A stretch of DNA of 32,755 nt from positions 1 through 32,755 of the forward strand of contig JBFGRR010000001.1 of the NCBI GenBank assembly GCA_041567215.1, read 5' to 3'. Shown one piece after another: positions 9,114 to 32,755 of this stretch (positions are counted from its first letter, which is position 1; each line of letters starts with the position of its first letter). The notes under the pieces were generated by a model. The model searched no databases, was not told where the DNA came from, and saw only the letters and a list, made by a program, of their open reading frames with translations. The DNA comes from Acidimicrobiia bacterium. Its GTDB lineage: Bacteria; Actinomycetota; Acidimicrobiia; Spongiisociales; ZC4RG35. The position numbers and the translations under genes were made by a program.

Positions 9114-9149
9114 GATGGTCAAACCCTCGGAAGACCGCCCACCGACAGG

Positions 9150-11635: not shown

Positions 11636-11646
11636 ATCCGCTCCGT

Positions 11647-16263: not shown

Positions 16264-16964
16264 GTCAGGCTCCTGTGTTCGTTCAGGTAGGTGGCCAGGG
16301 AGGCCACCAATTCGTCAAAGCGAGGGGTGGCGGGAACTACATGCGGCAGATGTCCGACAGCCTCGAGAGAGGCGGCGGTGGTCCGGCCGATCGCGGCGGT
16401 GACGAGGCCGTCGAGACTCCTGGACGACAGCCAACCGTCCACCGCCGACGGCGAGCCGAATACGACGGCGTCGACCTCGTCATGGGACGGAGCAATCGGC
16501 AGGGTTTCGTACACCCAACCGCTGGATAGTCGGGCGCCGGACCCGAGGAGAGCGGCGAGTGTCGATGGGTCGGCCATCCGGGCATGCGGGTACACGACGG
16601 ACGCGCCCTGGATGACCTCCGTGAGGCGATCCACGAGACCCGACGCGCCGCCGCCTCCCACCAAAGCCACCGAGCCGCCGGCCTGGCTCGCAGCCGCCGC
16701 CGTCCGGGAACCTACTGCTGCGACGCGAGGGCGCCCCGGCATACGCCCGCTAGGCCAGAGGACGTCGACGACCCGGCTGGATGTGAGAACGATCCAGTCA
16801 CACCGCTCGGCCTCGCCGCGGAGATGGGAGATCGTGTCAGCCTCTCCGGGAGACACCTCTATGCATGGAAGAAACACGGGGTCGAGGCCCGCGGCGGCTA
16901 GATCAGCGCCGATGCGTGCCGCCGGGACCGGTCTCGTCGTTGTGACTGCTACTCGAGGGCTCAC
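16260..16964 (-). CDS. hemD: uroporphyrinogen-III synthase
   Basis: 234 aa from GTG at 16964 (GTGA overlap with the hemC stop). VAVTTTRP...DWIVLTSSRVVDVL...VAAVGSRTAAA is HemD-like, and the position between hemC and hemB fits. The upstream 180 aa of the track ORF are an Arg-rich shadow. Confidence 0.75.
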   Translation of the reverse strand: MSPRVAVTTTRPVPAARIGADLAAAGLDPVFLPCIEVSPGEADTISHLRGEAERCDWIVLTSSRVVDVLWPSGRMPGRPRVAAVGSRTAAAASQAGGSVALVGGGGASGLVDRLTEVIQGASVVYPHARMADPSTLAALLGSGARLSSGWVYETLPIAPSHDEVDAVVFGSPSAVDGWLSSRSLDGLVTAAIGRTTAASLEAVGHLPHVVPATPRFDELVASLATYLNEHRSLT

Positions 16965-17818
16965 AAGGCCAGCTCCGCGACGAGTCTCCGGGCCGCTTCG
17001 TCGGGTGTCGCGCCGCGGGCAGATCCACGCCGTGGGCCTGCACCATCGTGCACGAACCCCCGGAGGTGAATGTCTCGACCGACGATCTCGCCGACCACGC
17101 CCAACGCAGCTCGGCAGCCTGCGCCGGTGAGCGAGAGCACGGAACGCTCGGCCTCGACGACGAGCCTCGTCTTCGGCTCGTCGATCGCAGCCACGAGCGA
17201 GGCCGCGTGGCCCCCGGGCGCCACCTCGACAGCTATGGCAGCCTGGGCGGGTGCAGGCACCATCTCGTCGATGGTGAAGCGGTGGGTGATCGCGCCCTCG
17301 AGGCCGAGCCGGCGCAGACCCGCCTCGGCGAGGACGACGGCCCGGTACTCCCCGGATGCGACCTTCGCCAAGCGCGTCTCCACGTTTCCTCGGATGTCTT
17401 CGACGATCAGATCCGGACGCAAGGCGGCAAGTTGCGCAGCCCGCCGGGGACTCCCGGTACCGACCTTGGCGCCGGAGGGCAACTCGCTCAGGCCACCCCC
17501 ACACAGCACGTCCCAGGGCGCCGCCCTCTCCGGATAGAAGACTTCGAGCCCGCCGGGGCCCTCAACCGGCAGGTCCTTACATGAGTGAACCGCGACATCC
17601 GCCTCACCACTCAAGACCGCCTCCTGGACGGCGCGCACGAAGGCGCCCAACTCGGTGAGGGATGTGACTGGTGAGCGCCGGTCACGGTCACCCGATGTCA
17701 CGATCTCGACGAAATCTATCGATAGCCCCGGGTGAACGACCGCGAGCCTCTCGGCGATCCGTCGGGATTGCGCCAGAGCCAGGTTCGATCTCCGAGTGCC
17801 GATCCTCAGGTCAGCCAT
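16961..17818 (-). CDS. hemC: hydroxymethylbilane synthase (porphobilinogen deaminase)
   Basis: 285 aa from ATG at 17818 (MADLRIGTRRSNLALAQS). Contains HSCKDLP, GTGSPRRAAQL, RGNVETRL and the cofactor Cys in TGAGCRAALG. 8-nt overlap with the hemA stop. Confidence 0.9.
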   Translation of the reverse strand: MADLRIGTRRSNLALAQSRRIAERLAVVHPGLSIDFVEIVTSGDRDRRSPVTSLTELGAFVRAVQEAVLSGEADVAVHSCKDLPVEGPGGLEVFYPERAAPWDVLCGGGLSELPSGAKVGTGSPRRAAQLAALRPDLIVEDIRGNVETRLAKVASGEYRAVVLAEAGLRRLGLEGAITHRFTIDEMVPAPAQAAIAVEVAPGGHAASLVAAIDEPKTRLVVEAERSVLSLTGAGCRAALGVVGEIVGRDIHLRGFVHDGAGPRRGSARGATPDEAARRLVAELAL

Positions 17819-18962
17819 CCACGATCCCGAACGCAGCTGCCAGGACTTCCGTAGCCTGCTCGGGCCCGCCTCCGGAACGTAGATAGGAAACCGGGTTGGC
17901 GAGGAGCGATCGAGCGACCGTGTGTGCTGCCTGACGGAGAACTGCATGATCTTCGCCATTCCCCAGCTTGGTCGCGAACCGATCGACCGCCCTCTCGACG
18001 AGATCATCTGCAGCTCGCATCATCTCGGCAATCACCGGGCCGACCGCGGCATGTTCGGTCATACGACGGTGTGCATCCGCAGCGTGGGCGGCAACGAAGT
18101 CATCTGCCTCATGGGGACGAGGTCGGCGGGCGGCGAGACGAGCCAGGTCATCGATGCTCACATACTTCACCGCGGCGTGGGGTGGAACATCGAAATCGGG
18201 TGGCATCGCCATGTCGACCAGCGTGAGGGGGGTGGTCCGCCGGCTGAACACACTGTCGAGCGTCGTGCCATCGATCAAACGCCGCTTCGCCGAGGTCGCA
18301 GATACCACCGCGCCGAAACGCTCGATGGCCTCGATGGCGCGGTCGAAGCCCCACACCTCCATTCCGGCGATGGCGACCTTCTCGGGAGAACGCGCGACAA
18401 CGGTCACCCGCGGCGGGGCGGGCAAGCTCAGCAGCCCCATGATCACGGAGTTCGCCATGATCCCGGAACCGAATACGGCGACCTCCTCTGCCGTGCCGAC
18501 GACCTGGGCCGTGACGGCGGCAAGCGAGCTGTGAGGCGAACCGGGCAACATCTCCCTTGCCTGCCTTCCGACCGACACTGCCGTTTCGAGGAGCTTCGAG
18601 AAGAGGCCGCCCACGTCACCACGGGCCTCGGACACTTTCAGTGCGTGCCGGAATTGGGTCAGGATCTCCATCTCGCCCAGCACGGGCGATTCGAGACCCG
18701 CGGCCACGCGAAAGAGGTGTGATACCGCGTCCAGGTCCTGGCGAACCGCGGCGGCTCCAAGCACCGACGCGTCTCCGAAAATGGCCGACACAGCACGCGA
18801 CAGGTGGTCTGCTCCCCCCTCGACCGCCACCTCGATCCGAAGGCAAGTAGACAGCACGAACGATCCTGGAACCGACTTGGGTCTTCCCAGCTGCTCACTC
18901 AGACGGGCTCGAACGGTCTCGTCACAGTTCGGATATGCGAAGCTGGCCGCCGCGATCCTCAC
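17811..18962 (-). CDS. hemA: glutamyl-tRNA reductase
   Basis: 383 aa. Contains STCLRIEV (active-site Cys), AAGLESPVLGEMEILTQ and the NADPH-binding VAVFGSGIMANSV. GTG start at 18962 is preceded by GAGGAGGGAG. Confidence 0.9.
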   Translation of the reverse strand: MRIAAASFAYPNCDETVRARLSEQLGRPKSVPGSFVLSTCLRIEVAVEGGADHLSRAVSAIFGDASVLGAAAVRQDLDAVSHLFRVAAGLESPVLGEMEILTQFRHALKVSEARGDVGGLFSKLLETAVSVGRQAREMLPGSPHSSLAAVTAQVVGTAEEVAVFGSGIMANSVIMGLLSLPAPPRVTVVARSPEKVAIAGMEVWGFDRAIEAIERFGAVVSATSAKRRLIDGTTLDSVFSRRTTPLTLVDMAMPPDFDVPPHAAVKYVSIDDLARLAARRPRPHEADDFVAAHAADAHRRMTEHAAVGPVIAEMMRAADDLVERAVDRFATKLGNGEDHAVLRQAAHTVARSLLANPVSYLRSGGGPEQATEVLAAAFGIVDG

Positions 18963-19035
18963 GCCTTCGCTCCCTCCTCGTTGCTGAAAAAAAGCTACCC
19001 AACGGGTGTTTCAACGGCGAGTCGGAAAGTGGCCG

Positions 19036-19920
19036 TCAGGCCCAGTCCACAGGAGCCGCCAGCAACAAGCCCTGCGTCGCCGACTCCTGACTATCCGACT
19101 CGGGCTCGAAGGAATCGTCCCAACGGGCTCGCGGCGGCAACGACGCCAGAATCGATTCGGTCCGCCCCCCTGTCTCGAGGCCAAAGCGCGTGCCCCGGTC
19201 CCAGATGAGATTGAACTCGACGTATCTGCCCCGGCGCAGCTCCTGCCAATGTCGCTGGCGAGCACCGTGTTCCAGGACGATTCGACGTTCCAGGATGGGG
19301 CCGTAGGCGGCAAACAGGCTGTTCCCGAGGTCCTTTTGGAACGCCCAGACTTCGGCGAGTCTGTCGTCGAGGTGGTCGAAGAAGATCCCGCCGACACCGC
19401 GTGCCTCGCCGCGATGCGGAAGATAGAAGTACTGGTCACAGGCCTGCTTCCACGCCCCGTGGTCGGCAACTGCGTGGCGGTCACACACCTCCTTGAGCTT
19501 CTCGTGAAAACCTCGGGCATCTTCTTCGAAGAAGTAGCACGGTGTGAGATCGGCACCACCGCCAAACCAGGCCGCCGTGCCGCCATCCGCCTCGAAGTAA
19601 CGCAGATTGGCGTGGAAGGTGGGCGCGAACGGGTTGCGGGGATGGACGATTATCGAGACGCCCGACGCATAGAAATGGTCGCCGGCCGCGGCGAGACGGT
19701 CCGACAGCATGGTCGGGGTGCTGCCCCAGACTGCCGAAAAGTTGACGGCGGCCTTCTCGATGTGGCGCCCCTCGGTGAGGATACGAGTATCCCCGCCCCC
19801 TCCGCCGGGCCGCGCCCAGACCTCGGAGACGAACCCCGTCGACCCGTCGACAGCCTCGATCGCGATGCAGAACCTCTCCTGCAGCCCCCGGTACCACGCC
19901 TCGATGTCGGACTTCTTCAC
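19036..19920 (-). CDS. hemF: oxygen-dependent coproporphyrinogen III oxidase
   Basis: 294 aa. Contains IEKAAVNFS, VHPRNPFAPTFHANLRYFE, WFGGGADLTP, YLPHRGEARGVGGIFFD and GRYVEFNL. GTG at 19920 forms a GTGA overlap with the hemH stop. Confidence 0.9.
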   Translation of the reverse strand: MKKSDIEAWYRGLQERFCIAIEAVDGSTGFVSEVWARPGGGGGDTRILTEGRHIEKAAVNFSAVWGSTPTMLSDRLAAAGDHFYASGVSIIVHPRNPFAPTFHANLRYFEADGGTAAWFGGGADLTPCYFFEEDARGFHEKLKEVCDRHAVADHGAWKQACDQYFYLPHRGEARGVGGIFFDHLDDRLAEVWAFQKDLGNSLFAAYGPILERRIVLEHGARQRHWQELRRGRYVEFNLIWDRGTRFGLETGGRTESILASLPPRARWDDSFEPESDSQESATQGLLLAAPVDWA

Positions 19921-20945
19921 CCTGTTGCCTGAACCATCTCTGCAACGGCTCCAACCCAGGTCGGAGTGGCGTTGACGCAGGGAACCAAGAGCATCTCCTC
20001 ACCACCGAGACCTTCCCATTGGGCGCGGCCGCGGATGCCGATCTCCTCCAGGGTTTCGAGGCAGTCCGCAGTGAAGGAGGGTGTGAGCACCGCGATCCGA
20101 CGCACTCCCCTCTCATACAAAGCAGGCAAGACCCTGTCGGTGTATGGCTCGATCCACTTCTGCCCCGCCAGCCTCGACTGGAACGAGGTGGAGTGAGCAC
20201 CATCCTCGAGATCCAGCTCCGCCGCGAGACCCCGAGTGGTCGCGTAGCACTGAGCCCGGTAACAGAAACGGTTGTCGCCGACGATCCCATCACAACAGGC
20301 ATCCGTCGCCAGGCACCACCCCTTGGAGGTGTCACCCCGCCTGACCTGTTTCTCGGGAAGACCGTGGTAGCTGAACAGGGTGTGGTCGGGCCGGAAACTG
20401 CTGAGGAGTGGCCTGGCCACCGCAGCGGCGGCCTTCAGGAAACCCGGGTGGTCGTAGAACGCACCCAGGACGCGGATCTCGGGTATGTTCCAGCCACCTG
20501 CCAGCAATCCCAGCGTCTTCTCCACCGCCGATCCGCCGGCTGCCGATGCGTACTGCGGGAAGAGTGGGAGCACGATGATTCGCCGGCATCCAACCAAGGC
20601 ATCCAGAGCCTCTTCTATCGAGGGATTCCTGTAGCGCATGGCGTACACGACGCGGTACGTGTCGCCGACGACACTCTGAACCCCGGCCGAGAGAGCCGCC
20701 GTGTGGAGAGTCAACGGAGACCCATCTTCGGTCCAGATCTTCTCGTAGGCCTCGGCTGAGCGTCGAGGCCGGAAGGGGAGTATCACGGCATTGAGCAGGA
20801 GGGCCCGGGCCGGAGCGGGCATGTCGAGCACTCGAGGGTCGGAGAGGAACTCGCGCAAGTACCTACGCACATCCGGCACGGATGGAGAATCGGGAGTCCC
20901 CAATTGCAGCAGGAGTACGCCGGTCAAGTCACGTGATGATGACAT
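19917..20945 (-). CDS. hemH: ferrochelatase with an internal Cys-rich insertion
   Basis: 342 aa from ATG at 20945 (MSSSRDLTGVLLLQLGTPDSP). An alternative ATG at 20987 would add 14 aa. Contains FSYHGLPEK, FQSRLAGQKWIEPYTD and FTADCLETLEEI. Confidence 0.9.
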   Translation of the reverse strand: MSSSRDLTGVLLLQLGTPDSPSVPDVRRYLREFLSDPRVLDMPAPARALLLNAVILPFRPRRSAEAYEKIWTEDGSPLTLHTAALSAGVQSVVGDTYRVVYAMRYRNPSIEEALDALVGCRRIIVLPLFPQYASAAGGSAVEKTLGLLAGGWNIPEIRVLGAFYDHPGFLKAAAAVARPLLSSFRPDHTLFSYHGLPEKQVRRGDTSKGWCLATDACCDGIVGDNRFCYRAQCYATTRGLAAELDLEDGAHSTSFQSRLAGQKWIEPYTDRVLPALYERGVRRIAVLTPSFTADCLETLEEIGIRGRAQWEGLGGEEMLLVPCVNATPTWVGAVAEMVQATG

Positions 20946-21065
20946 GAGGGGGCAACCTATCCCGTGGAGGCGCCAAACGGAAGTCATCCCCGCCGCGGCA
21001 GACCCGCACCGTCATCGGCAACGCAGATCGTCCACGGCTGCCGGCACGCCCTAACCTCCCCCGCC

Positions 21066-23066: not shown

Positions 23067-23888
23067 TCAGGTGTCCTGCTCGCCCTTGATGACGGCCTTG
23101 ACACCGCCGACGCCCGAGGCGGCTACGTCGCGCACCGCGTGGACAGCCTTCTCGCCGATCGACTCGGCTGCCTCGAAGGCACCCGACGCCGCTGCAGAAG
23201 CGGCATCCTCGAGAGAGAGGCCGACCTCTTTGGCACCGGCGATCGCTCCGGCGATCGCCCCGCTGGTCACGCCGATGACGTCGACACCCAGGTCGCCGGC
23301 ACCCTTGACGAGCCCGCGAGCGGTGTTGCGGATGGCGCTGAGCGCATCGCCACCGATCTCGGCGGTCCCCCGGACGGCCCCGGTCACGGTTGCGGTGGCA
23401 GTTCCGATCATGTCGGCGCCGAGGTCCTTGGCTCCACCGATGACCGAGCTGCCCAGCGTGAAGGCGCCGTCTGCAAGGCTGACGCCGGTGGACTTGGTGG
23501 CGTTGATCAGGCCCTCGGCGATCCCGCCGACGGTCTGCGTCACGTCGCCACCGATGGCTCCGGTCCCCTTGAGAGCTGCACGCACGACGTCGGAGAGAAC
23601 CCCGACCGTGACCGTGGCTACTTCGCCGACACCCTGGAGTACGCCGATCACGACACCCTTGGCGGTGCGGACCACTCCGGTCCCGACCTCGCCAACCGCG
23701 GTGAACGCACCGGTCACGACATCGCTGACCGTGGAGCTGATCGTCGTTGCGACGTCGCCCACACCCTTCACCGCGGTCACGACCGCATCACGGGCAACAT
23801 CCGCTGCACCGGTGACGATCGATCCCGTGCCCTTGAGCAGACCTGTGATGCTCTGCCGCACCCGTCCGCCAGCACTTCCTTCTGTCAT
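23067..23888 (-). CDS. hendecad-repeat protein (23 x 11 aa), unknown function
   Basis: 273 aa from ATG at 23888, with GGAAGGAG 6 nt upstream. The third codon position is predominantly G/C in this frame. The gene has its own terminator. The track ORF (to 24350) adds 154 Arg/Pro-rich residues antisense to the LuxR gene, and I reject that extension. Confidence 0.75.
   Translation of the reverse strand: MTEGSAGGRVRQSITGLLKGTGSIVTGAADVARDAVVTAVKGVGDVATTISSTVSDVVTGAFTAVGEVGTGVVRTAKGVVIGVLQGVGEVATVTVGVLSDVVRAALKGTGAIGGDVTQTVGGIAEGLINATKSTGVSLADGAFTLGSSVIGGAKDLGADMIGTATATVTGAVRGTAEIGGDALSAIRNTARGLVKGAGDLGVDVIGVTSGAIAGAIAGAKEVGLSLEDAASAAASGAFEAAESIGEKAVHAVRDVAASGVGGVKAVIKGEQDT
23088..23846 (-). repeat. 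33-bp periodic coding array (23 units), diverged at the DNA level
   Basis: The translation parses without gaps into 11-mers: TGLLKGTGSIV / TGAADVARDAV / VTAVKGVGDVA / TTISSTVSDVV / TGAFTAVGEVG / TGVVRTAKGVV / IGVLQGVGEVA ... ASGVGGVKAVI. Hydrophobic or small residues recur at positions 3, 4, 7, 10 and 11. Confidence 0.8.
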
Positions 23889-23935
23889 CTCGCACTCCTT
23901 CCGTCTCGGCCGATCTGGCCTCCTGGGACCACCAT

Positions 23936-24028
23936 CGCACGGCAGGTGCGGTCCGTCCATGACCACCAGCGAGGTTCGCCCGACAGGATTCGGGCAGGAA
24001 TCTGCCAGGCGCTTGGCAGGCGGCTGCC
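23936..24028. promoter_or_regulatory. cluster of palindromes in the divergent intergenic region (candidate operators)
   Basis: GGCAG-gaat-CTGCC lies at 23993..24006 and GGCAG-gcgg-CTGCC at 24015..24028, exactly 22 bp apart. A third GGCAG (23941..23945) sits at the centre of CGCAC/GTGCG (23936..23950). CCCGA-N6-TCGGG lies at 23979..23994. Confidence 0.35.
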
Positions 24029-24053
24029 GGATCCGGCGCGGTAGCCTCGCCCC

Positions 24054-24665
24054 ATGCGAAGGCGTATCGGGGTCAGCGGCGGCAGCACAACCTGGCGGCG
24101 CGGCATGATGGCGATCCTCGAGGACGCGGGCTTCACCGCGGTCGACGTCCCGGAACTCGACGAGTTCCAGCCGGGACGAGATGGGGTGGCGGTGGTGCTC
24201 AGGTCGGACTCGACCGATCTGGGGGAACCGCTGGAGCACGTTCGAGACGAGTATCCGGCCATCCCGATCATCGTGTCTGCACCCGAACTCGACCTCGGCG
24301 CGTTCGCATCGATGATCCGGGCAGGGGCGGCCATGGCCATCGACGACCACACCGACGTCGACTACTACGGGGTCATCGTCGATGCAGCGCTCAAAGACCG
24401 AGCCTCGGTCCCCAGGGAACTCCTCGCAGCGCTAGCCGCCCGGATACCGGCGACCCCCGAATCGTCGGCCTGGGTCACCGACACCGAAGCGGGTTGGTTG
24501 GTCGCCCTGGCCGAAGGGACCACCGTCGCCGATCTCGCCAACCGGGACGGCTATTCGGAGCGAGAGATGTTCCGCCTGCTCGGAAACACCTACAAGCGGA
24601 TCGGCGTGGAGAACCGCACGGAGGCGATCATCTGGGCCACCCGCCACGGCCTGCTCGACGGCTGA
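24054..24665 (+). CDS. LuxR/GerE-family regulator with an atypical (degenerate) receiver-like N-terminal domain
   Basis: 203 aa. The C-terminal GTTVADLANRDGYSEREMFRLLGNTYKRIGVENRTEAIIWATRHGLL is a GerE-type HTH. The N-terminal roughly 120 aa have beta-alpha periodicity like a receiver but lack the usual acidic pair (VSGGS). There is no SD before ATG 24054, so the mRNA may be leaderless. Confidence 0.8.
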   Translation: MRRRIGVSGGSTTWRRGMMAILEDAGFTAVDVPELDEFQPGRDGVAVVLRSDSTDLGEPLEHVRDEYPAIPIIVSAPELDLGAFASMIRAGAAMAIDDHTDVDYYGVIVDAALKDRASVPRELLAALAARIPATPESSAWVTDTEAGWLVALAEGTTVADLANRDGYSEREMFRLLGNTYKRIGVENRTEAIIWATRHGLLDG

Positions 24666-24681
24666 AGGGTTCGATCGCGCC

Positions 24682-27051
24682 CTAGACCACCACGCTCACG
24701 GAGGCGGTCCCAAACACCCCACGAGCCTCCAGCTCCAGCGCCCCGGTGGCATATGCCCAGTCCCCCCGATCCACGTCCCACCATCTGAGTTGGTCGAGGG
24801 CGACCTCGATGTCCAGAGCTGTGCTTTCACCGGGGTCGAGGTGGCGCTTCTGAAAGGCCACCAGCCGTCGATTCACTCCGCCCAGGTCTCTCGCATACAC
24901 CTGGACCACCTCGGCGCCGTGGCGATCACCGGTGTTCGCGAGGTTCGCCGTCAACTTCACCGCACCGTGACCCGAGGCGGCTGCGAGGTCCGACAGCTCG
25001 AAGGAGGTGTAGGACATCCCGTGGCCGAATCGGAACAGCGGCTCGAGACCGGCGCGATCGAATGCCCGGTAGCCGACGTGGATCGAGTCGTCGTAGTGGA
25101 TCTGGCCGTCTTTGCCGGGCCACCCGGCCAAGGACGGATGCTGGGTCGAGTCGACCGGGAAGGTCACCGGCAGCCGGCCACCAGGATCGGAGCGGCCCAA
25201 GAGCACGTCGGCGATCGCCGCGCCAGCCTCCTGGCCGCCGTACCAGACGTGCAGAACGGCCCTGACGTCGTTCAGCCAGGGCATCTCGAGCGCCGACCCA
25301 CCGGTCAGGACGACAACCGTGTTGGGCTGGGCAGCGGCGACCTCGGCTATCAGCCGGTCCTGATCGCCGGGCAGTCGCAGATCGGGCCGGTCGAAACCCT
25401 CGCTCTCCCACTCTCCGTTGAGGCCGGCCACCACGATGGCAACGTCGGCCTCGGATGCCGCTGCCACGGCCTCCGCGATGGGATCGTCCGTCCCGGGTAC
25501 CAGGCACCCGACTCCCAGCCAGCGCCAGCGCTCGCCAGGGACTGACGCGTACTCGACGGTCAACGCGACGGCCTCACCCTCGGACATCTCCAGCTGCCAG
25601 GCGTGGGGACCGACACCACTCCCCTCCCATTCGTCGACGACCTGAGATTCGCCGGCCCAGACCCGCAGTCTCCCCGCTCCAGAGGCGACGAAGGTGTGGA
25701 CACCCGCGGCGTCGGCCCGGTATTCGCCCGACATGCGCACCGAGAAGTCGTCGTGATCGACCCATTCGTCGCCATCGCCGAAGAAGGCGAGGTAGGTCTT
25801 GGGTGTGGCCAGCACTCGCACCGGCTCGTCGCCCGGCGACCGCCCGCGAAAGTACTCCACGAGGAAACCGGAGGCACCATCGCCGTGGCTCAACCGCGAT
25901 GCGTCCAACTGCGGAGGGTTGCGATGACTGGCGCAGCCAAAGGACCAGGTGACCGTGGTGCCTGCGGGGACGCTGGAGCGGATTCCGTCCAGTATCGAGA
26001 CCACCCTGTGAGCGTTGACAGCCGAGCTTCCCCCGCCCTGGTGGGGTGTGTTCTTCGCTCCCTCGCCGATGACCGCAATCGTTCTCTCGGCCGCAAGCGG
26101 GAGCGCGCCGCGGTTGGTCAGCATGACGATCGACTCCGCGGCGACCTTGCGGGAGAGGGCCCGGTCGCCGTCCCGCTCGTCCGCCCGCTCGGCATCGGCT
26201 CGCGGCTGGGTCCGCTCGATCAACTCGAGGATCCTGGCCACCTTGCGGTCGATGTCGGCCTCCTCCACCGCGCCCGACTCCAGCCCGGCCCGGATGTTCT
26301 CTTCGGACATCCAGCGAGCGGGACCGGGCATCTCCAGGTCCAGACCCGAACTCACCACGCCCGGCCCGTAGGTTCCGAACCAATCGCTGATCACGGCACC
26401 GTCGAATCCGAAGTCGTCGCGGAGAACATCATCCAGCAGCGGGTTCTCGGACGCGGTCACGCCGTTGATCGTGTTGTAGGCCGACATGGCGGCCCAGGGT
26501 TTCGACTCCTCGACAGCGATTCGAAACGGTTCCAGATATACCTCTCGAAGGGCCGCTTCGTCGACGCGAGCGTCGATGGTGAACCTGTCGGTTTCCTGGT
26601 CGTTGCAAACGAAGTGTTTGATGCAGGCCCCGACGCCCTCGGACTGGATGCCCCGGATGTATCCGGCCGCGATGCGACCCGAGAGATACGGATCCTCGGA
26701 GAAGCACTCGAAGTTGCGCCCTGCATTGGGCACCCTGGGGATGTTGACAGTGGGGCCGAGGAGCACCGAAGCCCCCTTCGCCCGGGTCTCGTGAGCGAGC
26801 GCTCGCCCCACGGACTCGATGAGGTCTGGGTCGAAGGTGGCGCCCATCGCCGCCCCGACGGGGAAACTGGTCGATGTGGGACCGTGGTTTCCGTCGGCGC
26901 CTCTGGCGCCGTTCGGTCCGTCGGTCACCTTCAGTGCCGGGATGCCAAGCCGCTCCACGGCACGGGTCTCCCACAAGTTGCTTCCCGAGAGAAGACCCAT
27001 CTTCTCTTCCATCGTCAACGCTCCGAGCATCTCTGCAACCCAGTCACTCAT
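24682..27051 (-). CDS. glycoside hydrolase family 3 beta-glucosidase with a PA14-like insertion, cytoplasmic
   Basis: 789 aa from ATG at 27051 (MSDWVAEMLGALTMEEKMGLLSG). Contains KVTDGPNGARG, KHFVCNDQE and GFDGAVISDW (nucleophile Asp motif). An insert of about 125 aa lies between the two GH3 domains. No signal peptide. 8-nt overlap with the upstream stop. The track start at 27213 is an over-extension. Confidence 0.9.
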   Translation of the reverse strand: MSDWVAEMLGALTMEEKMGLLSGSNLWETRAVERLGIPALKVTDGPNGARGADGNHGPTSTSFPVGAAMGATFDPDLIESVGRALAHETRAKGASVLLGPTVNIPRVPNAGRNFECFSEDPYLSGRIAAGYIRGIQSEGVGACIKHFVCNDQETDRFTIDARVDEAALREVYLEPFRIAVEESKPWAAMSAYNTINGVTASENPLLDDVLRDDFGFDGAVISDWFGTYGPGVVSSGLDLEMPGPARWMSEENIRAGLESGAVEEADIDRKVARILELIERTQPRADAERADERDGDRALSRKVAAESIVMLTNRGALPLAAERTIAVIGEGAKNTPHQGGGSSAVNAHRVVSILDGIRSSVPAGTTVTWSFGCASHRNPPQLDASRLSHGDGASGFLVEYFRGRSPGDEPVRVLATPKTYLAFFGDGDEWVDHDDFSVRMSGEYRADAAGVHTFVASGAGRLRVWAGESQVVDEWEGSGVGPHAWQLEMSEGEAVALTVEYASVPGERWRWLGVGCLVPGTDDPIAEAVAAASEADVAIVVAGLNGEWESEGFDRPDLRLPGDQDRLIAEVAAAQPNTVVVLTGGSALEMPWLNDVRAVLHVWYGGQEAGAAIADVLLGRSDPGGRLPVTFPVDSTQHPSLAGWPGKDGQIHYDDSIHVGYRAFDRAGLEPLFRFGHGMSYTSFELSDLAAASGHGAVKLTANLANTGDRHGAEVVQVYARDLGGVNRRLVAFQKRHLDPGESTALDIEVALDQLRWWDVDRGDWAYATGALELEARGVFGTASVSVVV

Positions 27052-30000
27052 CCGCTTCCTCCTGTGAGAACTCGACGGTGAAGACGACCTTCGAGATCGA
27101 CCCATCGGACGCGAAGATCGATGCAGATGATCCCTCGTCGAGGACAGCACCCGTCCGGTGCTTGGCGCGGCCATCGGCGTACAGGACCTCCACCGACGAC
27201 TGCGACCCTGCATGTAGCTCGACAGGAACCCGGCAGACGGTGAGTCTCGCAGGCGTCGTGCCCATCAGTTCCTCGGCCGGAAGCAGCCCGGGCTCGACGG
27301 CAATACGACCGGCGATCACCCGGAGGCCGATCTCCCCCATACGGGTGAGGATCTCCTCCTTCACCTGACCGGTCATGCCCGGTTGCTGGGCGCCTGCGTG
27401 CGCCGGTGTGTGCGAGTAGCAGTCGGTGGGTATGGCGCCGTAACTCTCAGGGTCCTTTCCGAACCCGAGGCCCGATCTGACCTGCCGATACAGCACAGCG
27501 AGCCGGGCGCCGGCGTCCGAGGCCCCGGCTGCGACCGAGTCGCGGTACACCTCCTGCACGGCCAGCAGGAGCTTGGCCACCATGTGCCAGTAGACGGAAC
27601 CGATGCCTTCGTACCCGTACATCGCGCCGGAACGACCGGTGAAGGAGTGGTGGCGAAAGACCTGCTCGTATACATCGGAGACGAGATCGCGAACGCGCCC
27701 GTCACATCCGGACGCGTCGAGGGCCGCCTCGAGGGCAGGGCGGTTGATGAGCCCCTTGGCGAAGTGCAGCCCGCCGCCAGAGTCCCGCGTCAGCACGGAG
27801 CCGATCAGCGGCTCCAATACCGGATGGGCGTCGAGTAGCCCCTGGGGAAGTTCGTTGCGATCGAGGAACGACGGGAGGCGGCGCGCTGGATAGAGCATGA
27901 ACGAGTGCTGATCGGGGCGATACATCTCCGAGGCGTAGAGGGCATCGATGACATCGGCGCACACGGCAGGGTCGAGCGCTCGCGACGAGAGAGCGGCGAC
28001 CTGGCCTTCGAGCATCGGACCCAAGCGGTCGACCGAGGCTGAGAGGTCATCCGGGAATCCCACCAGGTTGTACGAGTCGAACAACCCGTCAGGCCTGCGA
28101 GCAGAGGCAATCGAGGCCCGCAGATGTCGAAGGGCCGTGTCACAGAACCGCTCGATCGAGGCGGAAGTCACCGCGACCATCGGTCTGGAGAACTCGCTCG
28201 GCACAGCGGTCCGGTAAGCGGAGCCGACCGCCCCGAGAGCATCCATCATCTCCCGCCTCTTGGCGTCGTCGACGTTGCCATCGAGCGTCGATCCTTCGAA
28301 GCCCTCCAGAACGGCGGTCAGATCGGACAACCAGCGAGCCACCGGTACGGACATCATCAGCGGCTCTCCCGCGGGAAGACCCTTGATGTAACGCAGATAG
28401 CGGTGCAGGTAGAAAAGGGTCACCATCGAGAGCCCGTATCCGGCCAGAGCGTTGTTGGCATCGTTCCATTCCGGCCTCTGCGTGTTCATCCAGATGCCGC
28501 CGTGCGGAACGAACGCTGTGATCTTCGCGAGGGCAGGAACGAGGAGCTTCTCCATGAGTCCCACCCTCACCAGGCGGCCATCGGCACCGAACGTGAGCCG
28601 CCCATCCGTGCCGATCGCGTCCACCCGGCGTTCGATTTCACCCTGGCGTTCGTAGTCGAAGGAGATCGTGTTGCGGGGGTTGCTCACCATGGTCTCGTGG
28701 CCGGCGAGCACGTAGGGAACGTCGGCGTAGGTGAAGACCGGACGGCTGAGCCATGGATGGATACCACCGGGGTCGAACGCCTCCCACCCCTCGAGAAGCC
28801 GCAGCAGGTAGACGATCTGATGGTCTCCCCAGTAACCGATGTTGCTCCACGGATCGTCGGGTTCGGGGATCTCCCAATCGATTCCGTTTCTGGTGATCCG
28901 GTACGGGTTGTGGCCGTCCGCGGTCGACGCGTTCACGAACTTGGCCACGACGTTCGCGAAGTACCCGGGATACGAGTGGAGGAGCGCCTCCCAGTTCTGG
29001 AAGATGTCCCTCCAGTTGCCCTCGTAAAAGAGCAATTCGCTGCCGTCTGCGGCTTGCGTCATGATCGAGAAACGATTCCATGGGCGGCTCGGGTCGCCGT
29101 GTCGCCTAGAGAAGGTGAGGGGCAGATACTCGAGCACCATGCGGATCAGGTCCGGATCACCGCTCGAAAGCGCGAGCGATCGGAGCACCTCCAGATCGAC
29201 CCACTCCCCGAGGCCGCGGATCTCGTCGCCATGAGAGGCGAAGACGGCCCGATTCCGGGTGCCGATGAAATCGAGAAGATCGGCGACCGGCAGCCGGTAG
29301 ACATGGGGAAACACGCCACCCCGCATGCAGTTGAAGAGGACGTTGGAGAGATGGTGGGCATCAGCCACCCGGTCGCCCGTCGACTGAAATGCGTCCGCAC
29401 CGGCGAGGAGGATCCTCAGACGGTCGTTGCCCGAAGCGATGTCACCGCGGACCCGGACGACGGCGTCAGGGGTGGCCGCGAAGCGGACCCGGTCTCGGAG
29501 CGTCGCATGGCCGAGTCCGGTGTCGGCGACGATCGTCCACGAAACCGCATCGCCCGGCTCGACCTGGACGGCACCGCGAAGCAGGTAAGAGCCGCGGCGT
29601 CCAGTGAGTAGGTCGGTGGGAGGGTGGCCCCGTCCGTGGAGCATCGCCGCGATCACACGTTCGTCGAGGTGGATCTCGGCGTCCCATCCTGCCGACCACA
29701 CGAGCGTCGAAGCCAGGGCTTCTGCCGGCTCGGCGCGGTCGCTGACGAGCGACTCGAGAGAAAAGACACCGGCCGACCCCCACCGGCCCGTCTCGGATCG
29801 CTTGTAGGCGTCGACGAGATTGGATGAGACCTGTTCCATACCTGCGTCCACCCCGGCGGGCATCACATCGAGAAGACCATCGAGCACCTCGAGAGTGGCG
29901 CCCCCGGAGTCGATGTTCACGATCTCGGAGGTCCGCACCCAGCCGTTGTCGCGAGATGGCTCCCACGTCATCCGGAACTGGAGACCCCAGACCGCGTTCG

Positions 30001-30388
30001 TCTCTTCGAACACGATCCTGTTGCCGAGCACGCTCTTCGACACGGCCCTGGTGCACCCTTCGCCCACAACGGGCCCGAGCGGTCGCCAGAGCAGGCGAGA
30101 CCCATCCACGACGCGGGCCACCACCGTGACCGGTCCGGTGATTCCCGCCGCCCGGTGAATCCGGTCGTCGGTCTCATAGGGGAAGAGGGCGTTGTCGCGG
30201 TCGATGCGGCCGGCGGTCAGGGCGGTGGTGCTCGAGACGAACATCCACAGGTCACAGTCCGACACGACGCTCATCAAGAACGGCTCCATGTTCTCGAGCC
30301 CTTCGATGCGGTAGTGCTCGATGCCGTCGACGGTTGTCAAGCCGCCGGCGACGGGAGTACGCCCGGTGCTACGCGTCTCCAGATCCAT
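27044..30388 (-). CDS. large uncharacterised protein (1114 aa), possibly an (alpha/alpha)6-barrel glycoside phosphorylase/hydrolase-like enzyme
   Basis: One continuous ORF. ATG at 30388 forms TGATG with the upstream GH3 stop, and GGAGG lies 11 nt upstream. The GTG at 30400 used by the track has no spacing to the SD. No signal peptide, TM segment or P-loop seen. Motifs GNWRDIFQNWE (about 28988-29017) and RPEWNDANNALAG (about 28451-28474). Confidence 0.8.
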   Translation of the reverse strand: MDLETRSTGRTPVAGGLTTVDGIEHYRIEGLENMEPFLMSVVSDCDLWMFVSSTTALTAGRIDRDNALFPYETDDRIHRAAGITGPVTVVARVVDGSRLLWRPLGPVVGEGCTRAVSKSVLGNRIVFEETNAVWGLQFRMTWEPSRDNGWVRTSEIVNIDSGGATLEVLDGLLDVMPAGVDAGMEQVSSNLVDAYKRSETGRWGSAGVFSLESLVSDRAEPAEALASTLVWSAGWDAEIHLDERVIAAMLHGRGHPPTDLLTGRRGSYLLRGAVQVEPGDAVSWTIVADTGLGHATLRDRVRFAATPDAVVRVRGDIASGNDRLRILLAGADAFQSTGDRVADAHHLSNVLFNCMRGGVFPHVYRLPVADLLDFIGTRNRAVFASHGDEIRGLGEWVDLEVLRSLALSSGDPDLIRMVLEYLPLTFSRRHGDPSRPWNRFSIMTQAADGSELLFYEGNWRDIFQNWEALLHSYPGYFANVVAKFVNASTADGHNPYRITRNGIDWEIPEPDDPWSNIGYWGDHQIVYLLRLLEGWEAFDPGGIHPWLSRPVFTYADVPYVLAGHETMVSNPRNTISFDYERQGEIERRVDAIGTDGRLTFGADGRLVRVGLMEKLLVPALAKITAFVPHGGIWMNTQRPEWNDANNALAGYGLSMVTLFYLHRYLRYIKGLPAGEPLMMSVPVARWLSDLTAVLEGFEGSTLDGNVDDAKRREMMDALGAVGSAYRTAVPSEFSRPMVAVTSASIERFCDTALRHLRASIASARRPDGLFDSYNLVGFPDDLSASVDRLGPMLEGQVAALSSRALDPAVCADVIDALYASEMYRPDQHSFMLYPARRLPSFLDRNELPQGLLDAHPVLEPLIGSVLTRDSGGGLHFAKGLINRPALEAALDASGCDGRVRDLVSDVYEQVFRHHSFTGRSGAMYGYEGIGSVYWHMVAKLLLAVQEVYRDSVAAGASDAGARLAVLYRQVRSGLGFGKDPESYGAIPTDCYSHTPAHAGAQQPGMTGQVKEEILTRMGEIGLRVIAGRIAVEPGLLPAEELMGTTPARLTVCRVPVELHAGSQSSVEVLYADGRAKHRTGAVLDEGSSASIFASDGSISKVVFTVEFSQEEADE

Positions 30389-32385
30389 CAGGAGTCGCAC
30401 CTCCCCACCGTGCCGAGCGGCTCACCATCAGTCGAAAGGCCATAGCCGAAGGGGTATCTGGCGCCATCACACGAACCCATCTGGAGGCTCCCCAGGGCTT
30501 CGATGGAGGAGGGCCACGTGTATGGGAGCACGCCTGCGAAAGCCTCTTCACCTGTCAGCACATCGACGATCCCAGCACCCTCCGAACCGGGCAGCCAGGC
30601 AACCACCAGGGCATCGGCGCTGTCAAACTCGGGCCCCAGCACCAGCGGACGCCCGGTGATGAGGACCACCACCAGCTTGTCCACCTTTGGCCGCATCCGG
30701 CGGATGACCTCCACCTCCGAGCCCGGCAGCATCAGCGACTCGCTGTCGCCTCTCCCCTCGGCGTAGGGCCGCTCACCGACGACGGCGATTCCCAGCGGAG
30801 CGACATCCGTACGGTTGTCGAACTTCCCGAAGCGGTCGTACTCGATAGTGGACGACACGGCGGTGAGGGCGTCGAAGATGCTCGTGCCACCGGCGACGTC
30901 GCCCGAGTCGCCCTGCCAGCTGATGGTCCATCCGCCCGACTGGATACCAACGTCATGTGCGGCTGCACCACCGAGAAGGACCGTGCCTCCGTCTGTGTCG
31001 ATCGGCAGTGTTTCGCCATCGGTCTCGAGAAGGACCATCGATCGGGCCACCGCTCGGCGGGCAAGCGCCCTGTGCTCATCGGAACCGACAGATGCGAGTA
31101 GATCGGACGTCGGCATCGGCGACTCGAAGAGGCCCATCGCGAACTTCACCCGGAGGATCCTCCGCACCGCCTCGTCGATGCGCTCCTCGATGACGTCCCC
31201 CTGGGTCACGGCCCCGCGCAGCGCCCTGATGAAGAGCTCATACTCGGAGGGCACCATCACCATGTCGATCCCGGCATTGACGGACTGGACGATCGAGCCG
31301 TACAGATCGCCCGGTTTGACCTGATCGACTGCGGCCCAGTCGGAAACCACGAATCCGTCGAACCCGAGCTCTCCACGGAGCATGTCGGTGAGCAGATAGC
31401 GGTCGCCGTGGACCTTGCCGTTCTCCCAGCTGGAGTAGGACGCCATGACCGTCACCGCGCCGGTTTCGAATGCGGCCAAGTACGGGTATACGTGGACAGA
31501 GCGGAGCTCGTCCTCGCCCGCCAGTGTCACACCCTGGTCGATCCGGTACACCGTCGAGGTGCCCCAACCCGTGCCGCCGTCTCCCACGAAATGCTTGGGT
31601 GTGGCGACCACGGCCGTGTCTTCGGCGAGATCTGCACCCTGAAGGCCGCGGACGACAGCCGCTCCAAGCAGGGACACGAGCTCCGGATCCTCGCCAAAAG
31701 CCTCATAGGTCCGACCCCAGCGGACGTCCTGCGGGACGGCGAGGACCGGTGAGTAGTTCCAGCGAATCCCGGTGGCGGCCGTCTCTTCGGCCGTCGCCCT
31801 GGCAATCTCCTCTACGAGAACGGGATCCCTCGTGGCTCCCAGCCCCACGTTGTGCGGAAAGATCGTGGCTCCGCGCAGATTGTTGTGGCCGTGAACGGCA
31901 TCCACCCCGTAGATGACCGGGATTCCCAGCCGGGTGGCGAGGGCGGCGTCCTGAAAGGCCCCGACCATCTCGCGCCAGGCTTCGGGGTTGTTGGGGCGGG
32001 GCGTGCCTCCGCCCCCGCTGAGCAGCGCACCGATCGCGTACTCACGCACCTCTTCCGGGCTGATGGACCCTTTCTCGACGAGGGTCATCTGCCCGAGCTT
32101 CTCGTCCAGCGTCATCCGGCCGAGCAGGTCCTCGACGCGCTCGTCGACCGGAACCGACGGGTCCAGGTAGGCGGGATCGGCGGCGGTGGCAGCGGTGGTT
32201 GCCGGGACTTCGACCGTGGTAGTGGTGGTGGACTCGCTACCCGACCCACAGGCAGCCAAGGCGACCAACGCCGTGAGCGCTCCGGCCACCACTCCGGAGC
32301 GAACACGGCGACGGTCGGACCCGGACCGGGACTCGAGTGGCCCGTCCGGGTCATCCCCGGGAGGAATCGGGGAGGTATTGGTCAT
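30388..32385 (-). CDS. glycoside hydrolase family 3 (exo-beta-glucosidase/glucan beta-glucosidase type), predicted lipoprotein
   Basis: 665 aa. SDRRRVRSGVVAGALTALVALAAC is a signal peptide with an LAAC lipobox and an RRR stretch. Contains LDEKLGQMT, YGVDAVHGHNN, IFPHNVGLGATRD and GFDGFVVSDW. ATG at 32385 forms an ATGA overlap with the upstream stop. Confidence 0.9.
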   Translation of the reverse strand: MTNTSPIPPGDDPDGPLESRSGSDRRRVRSGVVAGALTALVALAACGSGSESTTTTTVEVPATTAATAADPAYLDPSVPVDERVEDLLGRMTLDEKLGQMTLVEKGSISPEEVREYAIGALLSGGGGTPRPNNPEAWREMVGAFQDAALATRLGIPVIYGVDAVHGHNNLRGATIFPHNVGLGATRDPVLVEEIARATAEETAATGIRWNYSPVLAVPQDVRWGRTYEAFGEDPELVSLLGAAVVRGLQGADLAEDTAVVATPKHFVGDGGTGWGTSTVYRIDQGVTLAGEDELRSVHVYPYLAAFETGAVTVMASYSSWENGKVHGDRYLLTDMLRGELGFDGFVVSDWAAVDQVKPGDLYGSIVQSVNAGIDMVMVPSEYELFIRALRGAVTQGDVIEERIDEAVRRILRVKFAMGLFESPMPTSDLLASVGSDEHRALARRAVARSMVLLETDGETLPIDTDGGTVLLGGAAAHDVGIQSGGWTISWQGDSGDVAGGTSIFDALTAVSSTIEYDRFGKFDNRTDVAPLGIAVVGERPYAEGRGDSESLMLPGSEVEVIRRMRPKVDKLVVVLITGRPLVLGPEFDSADALVVAWLPGSEGAGIVDVLTGEEAFAGVLPYTWPSSIEALGSLQMGSCDGARYPFGYGLSTDGEPLGTVGRCDS

Positions 32386-32755
32386 GGGGCAGGAGGTTCA
32401 TACTCGAATGCGCCCACATCGCATCTCGATCCCTGAGGGCGAGCAATCCCACGCTGGTCGGTAGCCGGGCAGGCGTCTGCGCCCGCGGTGTCGATCGCCA
32501 GGCTGCCGGCGAGCAATGCGTGCGTCGCCGTTGGCCCACCGTTGTCGGCCAGCGGTCCTATCAGGGCATCCCAGACGATCTGGTCGCTGGAGACGCGATT
32601 GCAGCTGTCATCCTGGACGACGTTGTGTCCTGCCGACACGACATTGCCCACGGTGCCCGAGTCGAACCTCTCGCAGGCGTACCTCTGGTTCCCGGTGATG
32701 ATCGTGTCTCTCAGGGTGAGCGTCGGAACGAAGCCGCCACCAAACTGGCCGATGA
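32382..32755 (-). CDS. C-terminal part of a beta-helix / choice-of-anchor-Q-like domain protein (5' end beyond the window)
   Basis: The frame is open from the right edge, by hand translation: ..[51 protein letters not shown]... It ends [60 protein letters not shown]. The [18 protein letters not shown]......C..DQRG..RP....CD.GAFE pattern is the choice-of-anchor Q motif, recalled from memory. Confidence 0.65.

Follow-up and report, generated by a model that had tools for sequence, protein, structure and literature searches.

A probable GH149 beta-1,3-glucan phosphorylase in a translationally coupled GH16-GH3-GH149-GH3 operon of an Acidimicrobiia-type bacterium

The 1114-residue protein encoded between two GH3 genes of the window (the whole stretch of 32,755 nucleotides that was analysed) belongs, as an ordinary member, to the known family GH149. 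It is very probably a cytoplasmic beta-1,3-glucan phosphorylase (laminaridextrin phosphorylase, clan GH-Q). The reaction predicted for it is the phosphate-dependent cleavage of beta-1,3-gluco-oligosaccharides to alpha-Glc1P (EC 2.4.1.97-type), and this prediction is supported indirectly by the GH16 laminarinase and the ExoI-like GH3 enzyme encoded by co-transcribed genes. The GH149 gene appears to be the third of four translationally coupled laminarin-degradation genes. The features of the locus are listed in Table 1.

Table 1. Positions in the window of the genes, gene junctions and active-site codons of the GH149 locus.
Feature	Position	Strand	Basis
GH16 gene fragment: last 124 codons (123 aa + stop), runs off the right edge of the window	32382..32755	-	
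ATGA, GH16/upstream GH3 stop/start overlap	32382..32385	-	
Upstream GH3 gene: predicted lipoprotein of 665 aa, an ExoI-like beta-D-glucan exohydrolase with two domains	30388..32385	-	Pfam, PDB, lipobox
TGATG, upstream GH3 (665 aa)/GH149 stop/start overlap, 1 nt shared	30386..30390	-	
GH149 beta-1,3-glucan (laminaridextrin) phosphorylase gene, product predicted cytoplasmic	27044..30388	-	NF058639.1, PDB 6HQ6, AlphaFold model
R460-D461 codons, RD motif recognising sugar 1-phosphate (Pro_7066 R470-D471)	29006..29011	-	6HQ6 alignment
W641-N642-D643 codons, catalytic WND loop with D643, which corresponds to Pro_7066 D653, as predicted general acid	28460..28468	-	
E927 to H935 codons (YGYEG...YWHMV), matching Pro_7066 E951 and H959	27584..27610	-	alignment
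ATGAGTGA, GH149/downstream GH3 (789 aa) overlap, 8 nt	27044..27051	-	
Downstream GH3 gene: predicted cytoplasmic beta-glucosidase of 789 aa that carries a PA14 insert and an Fn3-like domain	24682..27051	-	Pfam, PDB 3ABZ

The following observations establish the family of the protein. The NCBIfam equivalog NF058639.1 (GH149_beta_1_3, "1,3-beta-D-glucan phosphorylase, GH149 family") matches residues 13-1105 with 1238.8 bits against a cutoff of 1150, and the match spans positions 5-1133 of the 1134 in the profile. Among characterised enzymes the bacterial Pro_7066 (PDB 6HQ6) is the nearest, and residues 15-1105 align with it collinearly from end to end (E 1.5e-260) at about 41% identity over 1083 aligned positions. 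GH149 was established in 2018, and its two characterised enzymes, EgP1 of Euglena gracilis and Pro_7066, are 45% identical and have their activity in common (PMC5827456). Phosphorolysis of beta-1,3-glucans is the only activity that PMC5827456, PMC6771811 and PMC6484121 describe for the family. EgP1, which was compared through the family HMM, shares with the present protein the family and the predicted reaction, but it is eukaryotic, has a targeting peptide, uses the storage glucan paramylon as its substrate and prefers short acceptors (PMC5827456). The initial annotation had called the protein uncharacterised. This description holds for Pfam-A, where no family, GH94 models included, matches at E <= 0.01, but not for the NCBIfam equivalog and 6HQ6, which both identify it as GH149.

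In the active site of Pro_7066, R470-D471 recognise the sugar 1-phosphate, D653 of the WND motif (W651, N652, D653) is the general acid, E951 contacts the donor hydroxyls, and H959 recognises the phosphate (PMC6771811). The corresponding residues R460, D461, W641, N642, D643, E927 and H935 are all present here, and each of them is invariant in 80 of the 80 homologues of a diverse set that covers 39-99% identity and many phyla. Two motifs about 180 residues apart had already been noticed in the initial annotation. These are GNWRDIFQNWE (residues 457-467) and RPEWNDANN (residues 638-646), with 183 residues from R460 to D643, and they turn out to be the RD motif of the family and its catalytic WND loop. 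The surface oligosaccharide-binding residues E990, Y993 and E994 of Pro_7066 are not conserved, their places being taken by V965, R968 and Q969. These columns vary across the same 80 homologues, and the site is variable among bacterial GH149 sequences (PMC6771811) and does not define the family.

The AlphaFold model of the protein (mean pLDDT 80, pTM 0.80) has its best fold matches in the Pro_7066 structures 6HQ8 and 6HQ6 (TM 0.82-0.84 over 1135 columns, 39% identity), and superposes on 6HQ8 with a TMq of 0.84 and a TMt of 0.82. It contains the beta-sandwich, the helical linker, the C-terminal jelly roll and the (alpha/alpha)6 barrel of GH149, the last being the element that had been proposed as a check on a predicted structure. 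It also contains Dom1 and Dom2, two inserts that GH94 enzymes lack (PMC6771811). The Dom1-equivalent has 59 residues, equal to the family median, and the Dom2-equivalent has 86, about 10 fewer than the family median of 96 and about 10 fewer than in Pro_7066. The model is least confident, with a pLDDT below 50, in the most conserved active-site segments (427-447, 449-462, 915-929 and 992-1006), and the active-site geometry therefore rests on the sequence alignment rather than on the model.

The next fold matches are GH161 (TM 0.59) and the GH94 laminaribiose phosphorylase PsLBP (6GGY; TM 0.53), at 13-15% identity. The GH161 enzymes (PapP; 9GY9, 9QQK) and PsLBP resemble the present protein in clan, fold class, beta-1,3 linkage, the catalytic Asp, RD and His logic and the presence of co-located beta-glucosidase genes. 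Membership in GH161 was rejected, as the sequence matches are weak and local (9QQK, E 4.7e-7) and the TMq is clearly below that of GH149. The PDB sequence comparison found no similarity to PsLBP. GH161 enzymes phosphorolyse only chains with a degree of polymerisation of 3 or more, and the GH94 laminaribiose phosphorylase acts on the disaccharide only (PMC6484121).

The gene lies between two GH3 genes with a TGATG junction on one side and an 8-nt overlap on the other, exactly as first annotated; the strand, left unstated at that time, is the minus strand. An AGGAGGA site is found 5 nt upstream of the ATG of the downstream GH3 gene. The upstream GH3 enzyme has the Pfam domains Glyco_hydro_3 and Glyco_hydro_3_C, and its best matches in the PDB are beta-glucan exohydrolases: 5M6G (9.4e-172), barley ExoI (1e-147) and the exo-1,3/1,4-beta-glucanase 3USZ (1.9e-133). 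Its N-terminus proceeds from a basic RRRVR through a hydrophobic stretch to the lipobox LAAC (residues 43-46) and thus fits the secreted lipoprotein originally proposed. The downstream GH3 enzyme matches 3ABZ, annotated 'Beta-glucosidase I' (3e-156), and has a Fn3-like domain and a PA14 insert (26.6 bits against the Pfam cutoff of 24). Neither a lipobox nor a hydrophobic stretch above KD 1.5 occurs in it, and its first 80 residues carry no visible hydrophobic leader, in line with the cytoplasmic, PA14-containing GH3 of the first reading. The GH149 protein had been described as devoid of a signal peptide, transmembrane segment and nucleotide-binding loop, and a search of it for a hydrophobic 19-mer above KD 1.5, a lipobox, a P-loop and GxGxxG found none of these.

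The GH16 fragment at the right edge of the window shares 52% identity with the C-terminal end of the GH16 protein that adjoins GH149 in the relative L082. The complete gene could be read from two contigs (L085 and L088) that are 99.3-99.4% identical to the window. It encodes 1428 residues, comprising a signal peptide, CBM11, Calx-beta and GH16 domains and a terminal choice-of-anchor Q domain (NF041518 choice_anch_Q, 94.9 bits). The GH16 domain has its best matches in the laminarinases 3ATG, 2HYK and 3AZX (E 2.5e-67), and its E-values are about 1e-67 for beta-1,3-glucanases versus about 1e-7 for lichenases. The protein is a predicted secreted endo-beta-1,3-glucanase (laminarinase). A second GH16 gene follows beyond it, and the gene order in contigs 99.3-99.5% identical to the window is GH16, GH16, GH3, GH149, GH3. 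The two GH16 genes take up the 5.2 kb past the right edge, the place where an ABC transporter had been suspected; neither an ABC transporter nor a regulator is found within the operon or in these 5.2 kb. From this extension, the operon reads GH16, GH3 (ExoI-like lipoprotein), GH149, GH3 (cytoplasmic, PA14).

In laminarin loci, bacterial GH149 genes are accompanied by genes of the families GH16, GH17 and GH3 (PMC5827456, PMC10811738), and transporter genes are reported among their neighbours as well. The same association with beta-1,3-glucan utilisation genes is observed here, without a transporter. In relatives 57-60% identical (L003, L082 and L084), the neighbours are LacI, ABC transporter, GH16 and GH3 genes. 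Pro_7066 likewise has no signal peptide and is encoded among beta-1,3-glucan-degrading genes (PMC5827456, PMC6771811), but its source is Flavobacteria-like, whereas the present DNA, with about 65% G+C, is apparently from an Actinomycetota (Acidimicrobiia-like) organism. The compact coupled operon also differs from a SusC/D polysaccharide utilisation locus and from an ABC-transporter 'type I' cluster.

By homology to Pro_7066, EgP1 and the GH94 enzymes, it is possible to propose how the enzyme works. The -1 subsite (R460, D461, E927) would hold the non-reducing-end glucose, and inorganic phosphate, positioned with the help of H935, would attack its C1. The leaving O3 would be protonated by D643 of the WND loop. 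The products would then be alpha-D-glucose 1-phosphate, in the inverted configuration, and a beta-1,3-oligoglucan that has lost one unit. In the pathway as a whole, the polymer would first be cut by the secreted 1428-residue CBM11/GH16 endo-laminarinase and then trimmed by the surface-anchored ExoI-like GH3 lipoprotein. Oligosaccharides would be imported by a transporter encoded outside the locus and shortened by GH149 without ATP cost. The remainder (e.g. disaccharides and branch stubs) would be hydrolysed by the cytoplasmic PA14-containing GH3 beta-glucosidase.

A GH149 phosphorylase with a specificity unlike that of the two characterised members seems improbable. Such an enzyme could, for example, have another minimum chain length, tolerate beta-1,6 branches or mixed beta-1,3/1,4 linkages, or prefer another beta-1,3-linked sugar. 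The low identity (about 41%) of the present protein to Pro_7066, the altered surface-binding triad and the shorter Dom2 would be in keeping with this, as would the resemblance of the co-encoded GH3 to exo-1,3/1,4-beta-glucanases; EgP1 and Pro_7066 themselves already differ in chain-length kinetics (PMC5827456). The protein also falls in a cluster of its own, 57-60% identical and drawn mostly from metagenome-assembled genomes of Acidimicrobiia and other Actinomycetota, with all other sampled sequences at 48% identity or less. Against this, the equivalog cutoff is exceeded, the named donor-site and catalytic residues are all invariant, the adjoining GH16 is of the beta-1,3-glucanase rather than the lichenase type, and the papers cited above describe one activity only for the family. 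That this clade, which lacks the surface-binding triad of Pro_7066 and has a shorter Dom2, differs in acceptor or chain-length specificity or tolerates branches, and that the locus is a compact Gram-positive-type laminarin operon, is conceivable but unlikely. In an operon of this type, translational coupling would link secreted, lipid-anchored and cytoplasmic enzymes, with no transporter dedicated to them.

The initial annotation had favoured a phosphorylase of the GH94 type, for example one that acts on 1,2-beta-oligoglucans (sophoro-oligosaccharides) and has GH3 partners. Its call of a phosphorylase stands, and the clan is GH-Q, but the family is GH149 and the linkage beta-1,3, not beta-1,2. 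A GH94 enzyme looked plausible from the size (about 1100 residues), the GH3 genes on either side and the RD and WND motifs, which the clan has in common, and a weak local match to 9H8V ('cellobiose phosphorylase', E 5.7e-7, 151 residues) points the same way. The systems of L. innocua (Lin1839/Lin1840) and L. phytofermentans also pair a large cytoplasmic phosphorylase with a GH3 beta-glucosidase, and have the same metabolic logic of phosphorolysis followed by hydrolysis of the leftover disaccharide. However, the Pfam GH94 models are silent, GH94 structures reach a TMq of 0.35-0.53 at 8-14% identity, and the structures of 1,2-beta-oligoglucan phosphorylase, 5H3Z and 5H42, come at places 38-39 of the fold search (TM 0.35-0.36, 8% identity; the L. 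phytofermentans enzyme is 38th, at TM 0.35), which GH149 leads. The upstream GH3 matches Lin1840 at 3.9e-59 versus 1e-147 to 9e-172 for ExoI-like enzymes, and the partners here are beta-1,3-specific GH16 laminarinases. Membership in GH94 is effectively refuted and has almost no probability left. Even though Pfam-A names no family and most of the at least 8000 homologues in the protein collection are labelled 'hypothetical protein', a founder of a new CAZyme family, which had been the other suggestion, or a non-catalytic or non-CAZyme protein is refuted by the matches of curated equivalog model, solved structure and predicted fold to GH149, and that number of homologues and the intact catalytic residues also speak against it.

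The assignment to GH149 is unsurprising to a specialist, and its main value is one of annotation. Pipelines that rely on Pfam give this abundant family no name, so that the capacity of Actinomycetota-like metagenome-assembled genomes to degrade laminarin can be overlooked. The first descriptions of GH149 came mostly from Gram-negative bacteria and euglenids. Clear GH149 members in Acidimicrobiia-type genomes, within a GH16-GH3-GH149-GH3 operon, are a small addition to the list of organisms that consume beta-1,3-glucans. The family is also of interest for the synthesis of beta-1,3-glucans from glucose 1-phosphate, for which this sequence, 41% identical to the characterised enzyme, is a reasonable further candidate.

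The reading frame of the GH149 gene runs from an ATG at 30388 to a stop codon at 27046-27044. A start at the GTG at 30400 would lengthen the frame by 4 codons, but this GTG immediately abuts a Shine-Dalgarno-like run (GGGGAGG), and the ATG is therefore preferred. The GC content at codon positions 1/2/3 is 0.67/0.47/0.81, and both GH3 neighbours behave likewise. An ORF on the plus strand inside the gene (28124-29611) has 0.80/0.46/0.65 instead, unlike these three genes, and is therefore read as an antisense shadow.

By sequence and predicted structure, the 1114-residue protein encoded between the two GH3 genes is a member of family GH149 in clan GH-Q. All of the defining features that can be tested are present in it, and its enzymatic activity is predicted. 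A Pfam-A search of the protein returns no match, which is why it looked uncharacterised; this silence reflects a missing model and not novelty, as NCBIfam and the PDB both identify the protein. The NCBIfam equivalog NF058639.1 ("1,3-beta-D-glucan phosphorylase, GH149 family") matches it end to end with 1238.8 bits (curated cutoff 1150), and the PDB sequence search finds Pro_7066, the bacterial GH149 beta-1,3-oligosaccharide phosphorylase whose crystal structure is known (6HQ6, 6HQ8), over residues 15-1105 with an E-value of 1.5e-260. The identity to Pro_7066, counted over 1083 aligned positions, is about 41%. The two characterised GH149 enzymes, Pro_7066 and EgP1 from Euglena gracilis, are 45% identical and have their activity in common (PMC5827456). 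The next-best PDB sequence matches, to GH161 chains and to a single chain labelled 'cellobiose phosphorylase', have E-values of about 5e-7 over 150 residues.

The catalytic WND loop of Pro_7066 consists of W651, N652 and D653, of which D653 is the predicted catalytic residue. R470 and D471 of the RD motif recognise the sugar 1-phosphate, H959 serves in phosphate recognition, and E951 contacts a ligand mimicking the donor hydroxyls (PMC6771811). When the 19-residue tag offset of the PDB sequence is allowed for, these residues align with W641/N642/D643, R460/D461, H935 and E927, respectively. The W-R-D and E-W-N-D motifs (GNWRDIFQNWE, residues 457-467, and RPEWNDANN, residues 638-646), which the initial annotation had likened to those of glycoside phosphorylases, are therefore the two signature motifs of GH149, RD and WND. 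Their separation, estimated earlier at about 180 residues, is 183 residues from R460 to D643. None of the seven active-site residues varies among 80 aligned GH149 homologues, and 132 positions in total are invariant in this set. The homologues share 39-99% identity with the window protein and were taken from genome contigs of Acidimicrobiia, Bacteroidota, Vibrio, Bacillota, Gemmatimonadota, Planctomycetota and further groups.

An AlphaFold2 model computed from a 40-sequence alignment (mean pLDDT 80, pTM 0.80) begins with a beta-sandwich, passes through a helical linker into a large helical catalytic region, and ends in a beta domain at the C-terminus. In a Foldseek search of the PDB, 6HQ8 and 6HQ6 are at the top (E about 6e-91, TM 0.82-0.84, 1135 columns), followed by GH161 (TM 0.59) and the GH94 laminaribiose phosphorylase (0.53); the cellobiose, chitobiose and cellodextrin phosphorylases have TM values of about 0.4. 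Both GH149-specific inserts, Dom1 and Dom2, are present, Dom2 being about 10 residues below the family median. The stretches of lowest confidence (pLDDT <50; residues 427-447, 449-462, 915-929 and 992-1006) fall on the active-site blocks of highest conservation, RRHGDPSRPWN...GNWRD, GRS..YGYEG and QQPGMTGQ, and the model thus supports the overall fold, not the geometry of the active site. By analogy with Pro_7066, which is a homodimer, these loops may become ordered only in the dimer or in the ligand-bound state.

Two assignments had been proposed. The first, a divergent beta-glucan or oligosaccharide phosphorylase by analogy with the GH94 1,2-beta-oligoglucan phosphorylases, holds in that the protein belongs with the phosphorylases of clan GH-Q, and fails at the level of the family: there is no Pfam-A match to GH94, and 1,2-beta-oligoglucan phosphorylase ranks 38th in the Foldseek search (TM 0.35, 8% identity). 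The second, a new CAZyme family, is ruled out by the above-cutoff NCBIfam score and by Pro_7066 heading both the PDB sequence and the Foldseek matches.

The GH149 reading frame is a real gene on the minus strand. Its GC content by codon position, 0.67/0.47/0.81, follows the pattern of both flanking GH3 genes. A plus-strand ORF inside it (28124-29611, 495 aa) is read as an antisense shadow because its codon-position GC is 0.80/0.46/0.65. A GTG at 30400 was rejected as the start, the ATG being preferred on the spacing of the ribosome-binding site and on the TGATG coupling. The junctions with both GH3 genes are those first described, and an AGGAGGA site precedes the ATG of the downstream GH3. A scan of all 1114 residues found no hydrophobic segment of membrane-spanning strength, lipobox, P-loop or Rossmann motif, in agreement with the earlier statement that a signal peptide, a transmembrane segment and a nucleotide-binding loop are absent.

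Coordinates of the GH149 operon and of the genes next to it
Feature	Position	Strand	Remark
GH149 gene	ATG 30388, stop 27046-27044	-	1114 aa
TGATG stop/start link, upstream GH3 to GH149	30390-30386	-	
ATGAGTGA link, GH149 to downstream GH3	27051-27044	-	
GH16 gene, C-terminal fragment	32382-32755	-	cut by window right edge
ATGA overlap, GH16-gene TGA / upstream GH3 ATG	GH16-gene stop 32384-32382	-	
Gene convergent with the operon	24054-24665	+	203 aa from first ATG; called 186 aa in sister contigs
ORF	23067-24350	-	427 aa in long version; 273 aa as called in sister contigs (L085:12463-13284)

The neighbours also correspond to their initial description. The upstream GH3 (665 aa) carries a basic and hydrophobic leader that ends in a lipobox, LAAC, at residues 43-46. 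The two-domain exohydrolases of beta-glucan are its best PDB matches: 5M6G (9.4e-172), ExoI of barley (about 1e-147) and the exo-1,3/1,4-beta-glucanase 3USZ (1.9e-133). The downstream GH3 (789 aa) has a PA14 insert and an Fn3-like domain, is without a leader, and is best matched by 3ABZ ('Beta-glucosidase I', 3e-156). The right edge of the window lies 370 bases upstream of the upstream GH3, and these bases code for the last 123 residues of a minus-strand GH16 gene. The genes form a compact operon linked by translational coupling, with no transporter among them.

Searching for the exact sequence of the GH149 protein gave no match, and contigs extending the locus were reached via a 99% identical representative, P0001, and the members of its cluster. 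Four sister contigs (L085, L086, L087 and L088), 99.3-99.5% identical to the window, reach up to 5.2 kb past its right edge. The assemblies of this organism, among them the metagenome-assembled genomes GCA_041575535.1 and GCA_041601075.1, are in fragments. The whole GH16 gene (L088:1294-5580, L085:1-3969) encodes a 1428-residue protein with a Sec-type signal peptide, three CBM11 stretches, a Calx-beta domain, the GH16 domain and a C-terminal choice-of-anchor Q domain. Its GH16 domain best matches endo-beta-1,3-glucanases/laminarinases (3ATG, 2.5e-67; 2HYK; 3AZX), while lichenases match it at only about 1e-7. Further upstream is another GH16 gene (L088:1-1242), whose product has an Exop_C-like domain. 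An ABC transporter had been hoped for beyond the right edge; none is found in these 5.2 kb, and the two GH16 genes are there instead.

The GH16 fragment in the window is 52% identical to the C-terminus of a 1689-residue CBM11/Calx-beta/GH16 protein encoded directly upstream of GH149 in the homologous locus L082, and the same type of module lies beside GH149 in L002, L003 and L004. A GH3 of the upstream type adjoins GH149 in 7 of the 83 other loci compared (L003, L004, L029, L084, L006, L007 and L022); the loci include one, L081, from the same species. L003 has the full set: GH16, an ABC transporter (binding protein and two permeases), LacI, GH3, GH149 and a 1631-residue CBM11/GH16 protein. In L082 and L083 (59-60% identity), genes for GH65-family proteins (alpha-glucoside phosphorylase/hydrolase type) and universal stress proteins (Usp) are found within a few kb of GH149, and GH149 of L083 has no adjacent GH3 or GH16. 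The neighbourhood thus varies across the clade.

By combining the family membership, residues, fold and gene context found here with what is known of the characterised GH149 enzymes, it is possible to propose a reaction and a pathway. The -1 subsite (R460, D461 and E927) would hold the non-reducing-end glucose of a beta-1,3-oligoglucan. Phosphate, placed with H935, would attack C1, D643 would protonate the leaving oxygen, and the products would be alpha-glucose 1-phosphate (Glc1P) and a chain shorter by one unit. With the characterised enzymes, phosphorolysis proceeds as far as the disaccharide, and glucose can serve as acceptor when the reaction runs backwards (PMC6484121, PMC5827456). In the cell, a laminarin-type glucan would be cut by the secreted GH16 protein and trimmed at the cell surface by the lipoprotein GH3, after which the oligosaccharides would be imported by a putative transporter. 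GH149 would then turn most of the glucosyl units into Glc1P with no ATP spent, and the residual disaccharides or branch stubs would be hydrolysed by the cytoplasmic GH3.

The protein and its locus are variations on a known theme. GH149 was established in 2018 (PMC5827456) and solved structurally in 2019 (PMC6771811). Its early members came for the most part from Gram-negative bacteria and euglenids (PMC6484121), and marine metagenomic studies now routinely take the family as a marker for the use of laminarin (PMC10811738). The window protein belongs to a cluster of sequences 57-60% identical to it, mostly from metagenome-assembled genomes of Acidimicrobiia and other Actinomycetota; the other GH149 sequences sampled are at most 48% identical to it. 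The closest relatives of the GH149 and GH3 proteins suggest that the source organism is Acidimicrobiia-like, within the Actinomycetota. The surface binding triad of Pro_7066, E990/Y993/E994, is replaced by V965/R968/Q969. This triad is variable within GH149 (PMC6771811), and we consider a difference in specificity peculiar to the clade improbable.

The only marker for the 3' end of the operon is the convergent gene, which ends 17 bases from the stop of the downstream GH3; a scan of 24000-24900 found no promoter or terminator consensus downstream of the operon. The convergent gene has a coding GC of 0.69/0.50/0.83 and a LuxR/GerE-like C-terminus (...YKRIGVENRTEAIIWATRHGLLDG). It has no Pfam match and only sub-threshold NCBIfam matches (CsgD, E 3.8e-4; MadR, E 1.5e-3), and may encode a degenerate response-regulator-like transcription factor. 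The sole match of the ORF at 23067-24350 is Phasin_2, sub-threshold (E 1.6e-4 to 2.2e-3). Its long version has an ambiguous GC content by codon position, and translation probably begins at an internal start, which would yield the shorter protein.

The minus strand also encodes an HrpA-type DEAH helicase (1289 aa, DUF3418) together with three MFS transporters, at 5253-9122, 954-3793 and 9150-10313. The MFS protein at 9150-10313 also matches Sugar_tr; its gene is 14 kb from the glucan operon and adjoins a haem biosynthesis cluster that occupies 10310-20987 on the minus strand. The cluster contains genes for glutamyl-tRNA reductase, porphobilinogen deaminase, HemD, ALA dehydratase, a class-III aminotransferase (HemL-like), uroporphyrinogen decarboxylase, a radical-SAM protein (HemN/HemW-like), a flavin amine-oxidase-type protein (HemY-like), an oxygen-dependent coproporphyrinogen oxidase (HemF-type) and ferrochelatase. 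Because Actinomycetota usually take the coproporphyrin-dependent haem route, the HemF-type oxidase beside a HemY-like gene is of note if the organism is an actinomycete.
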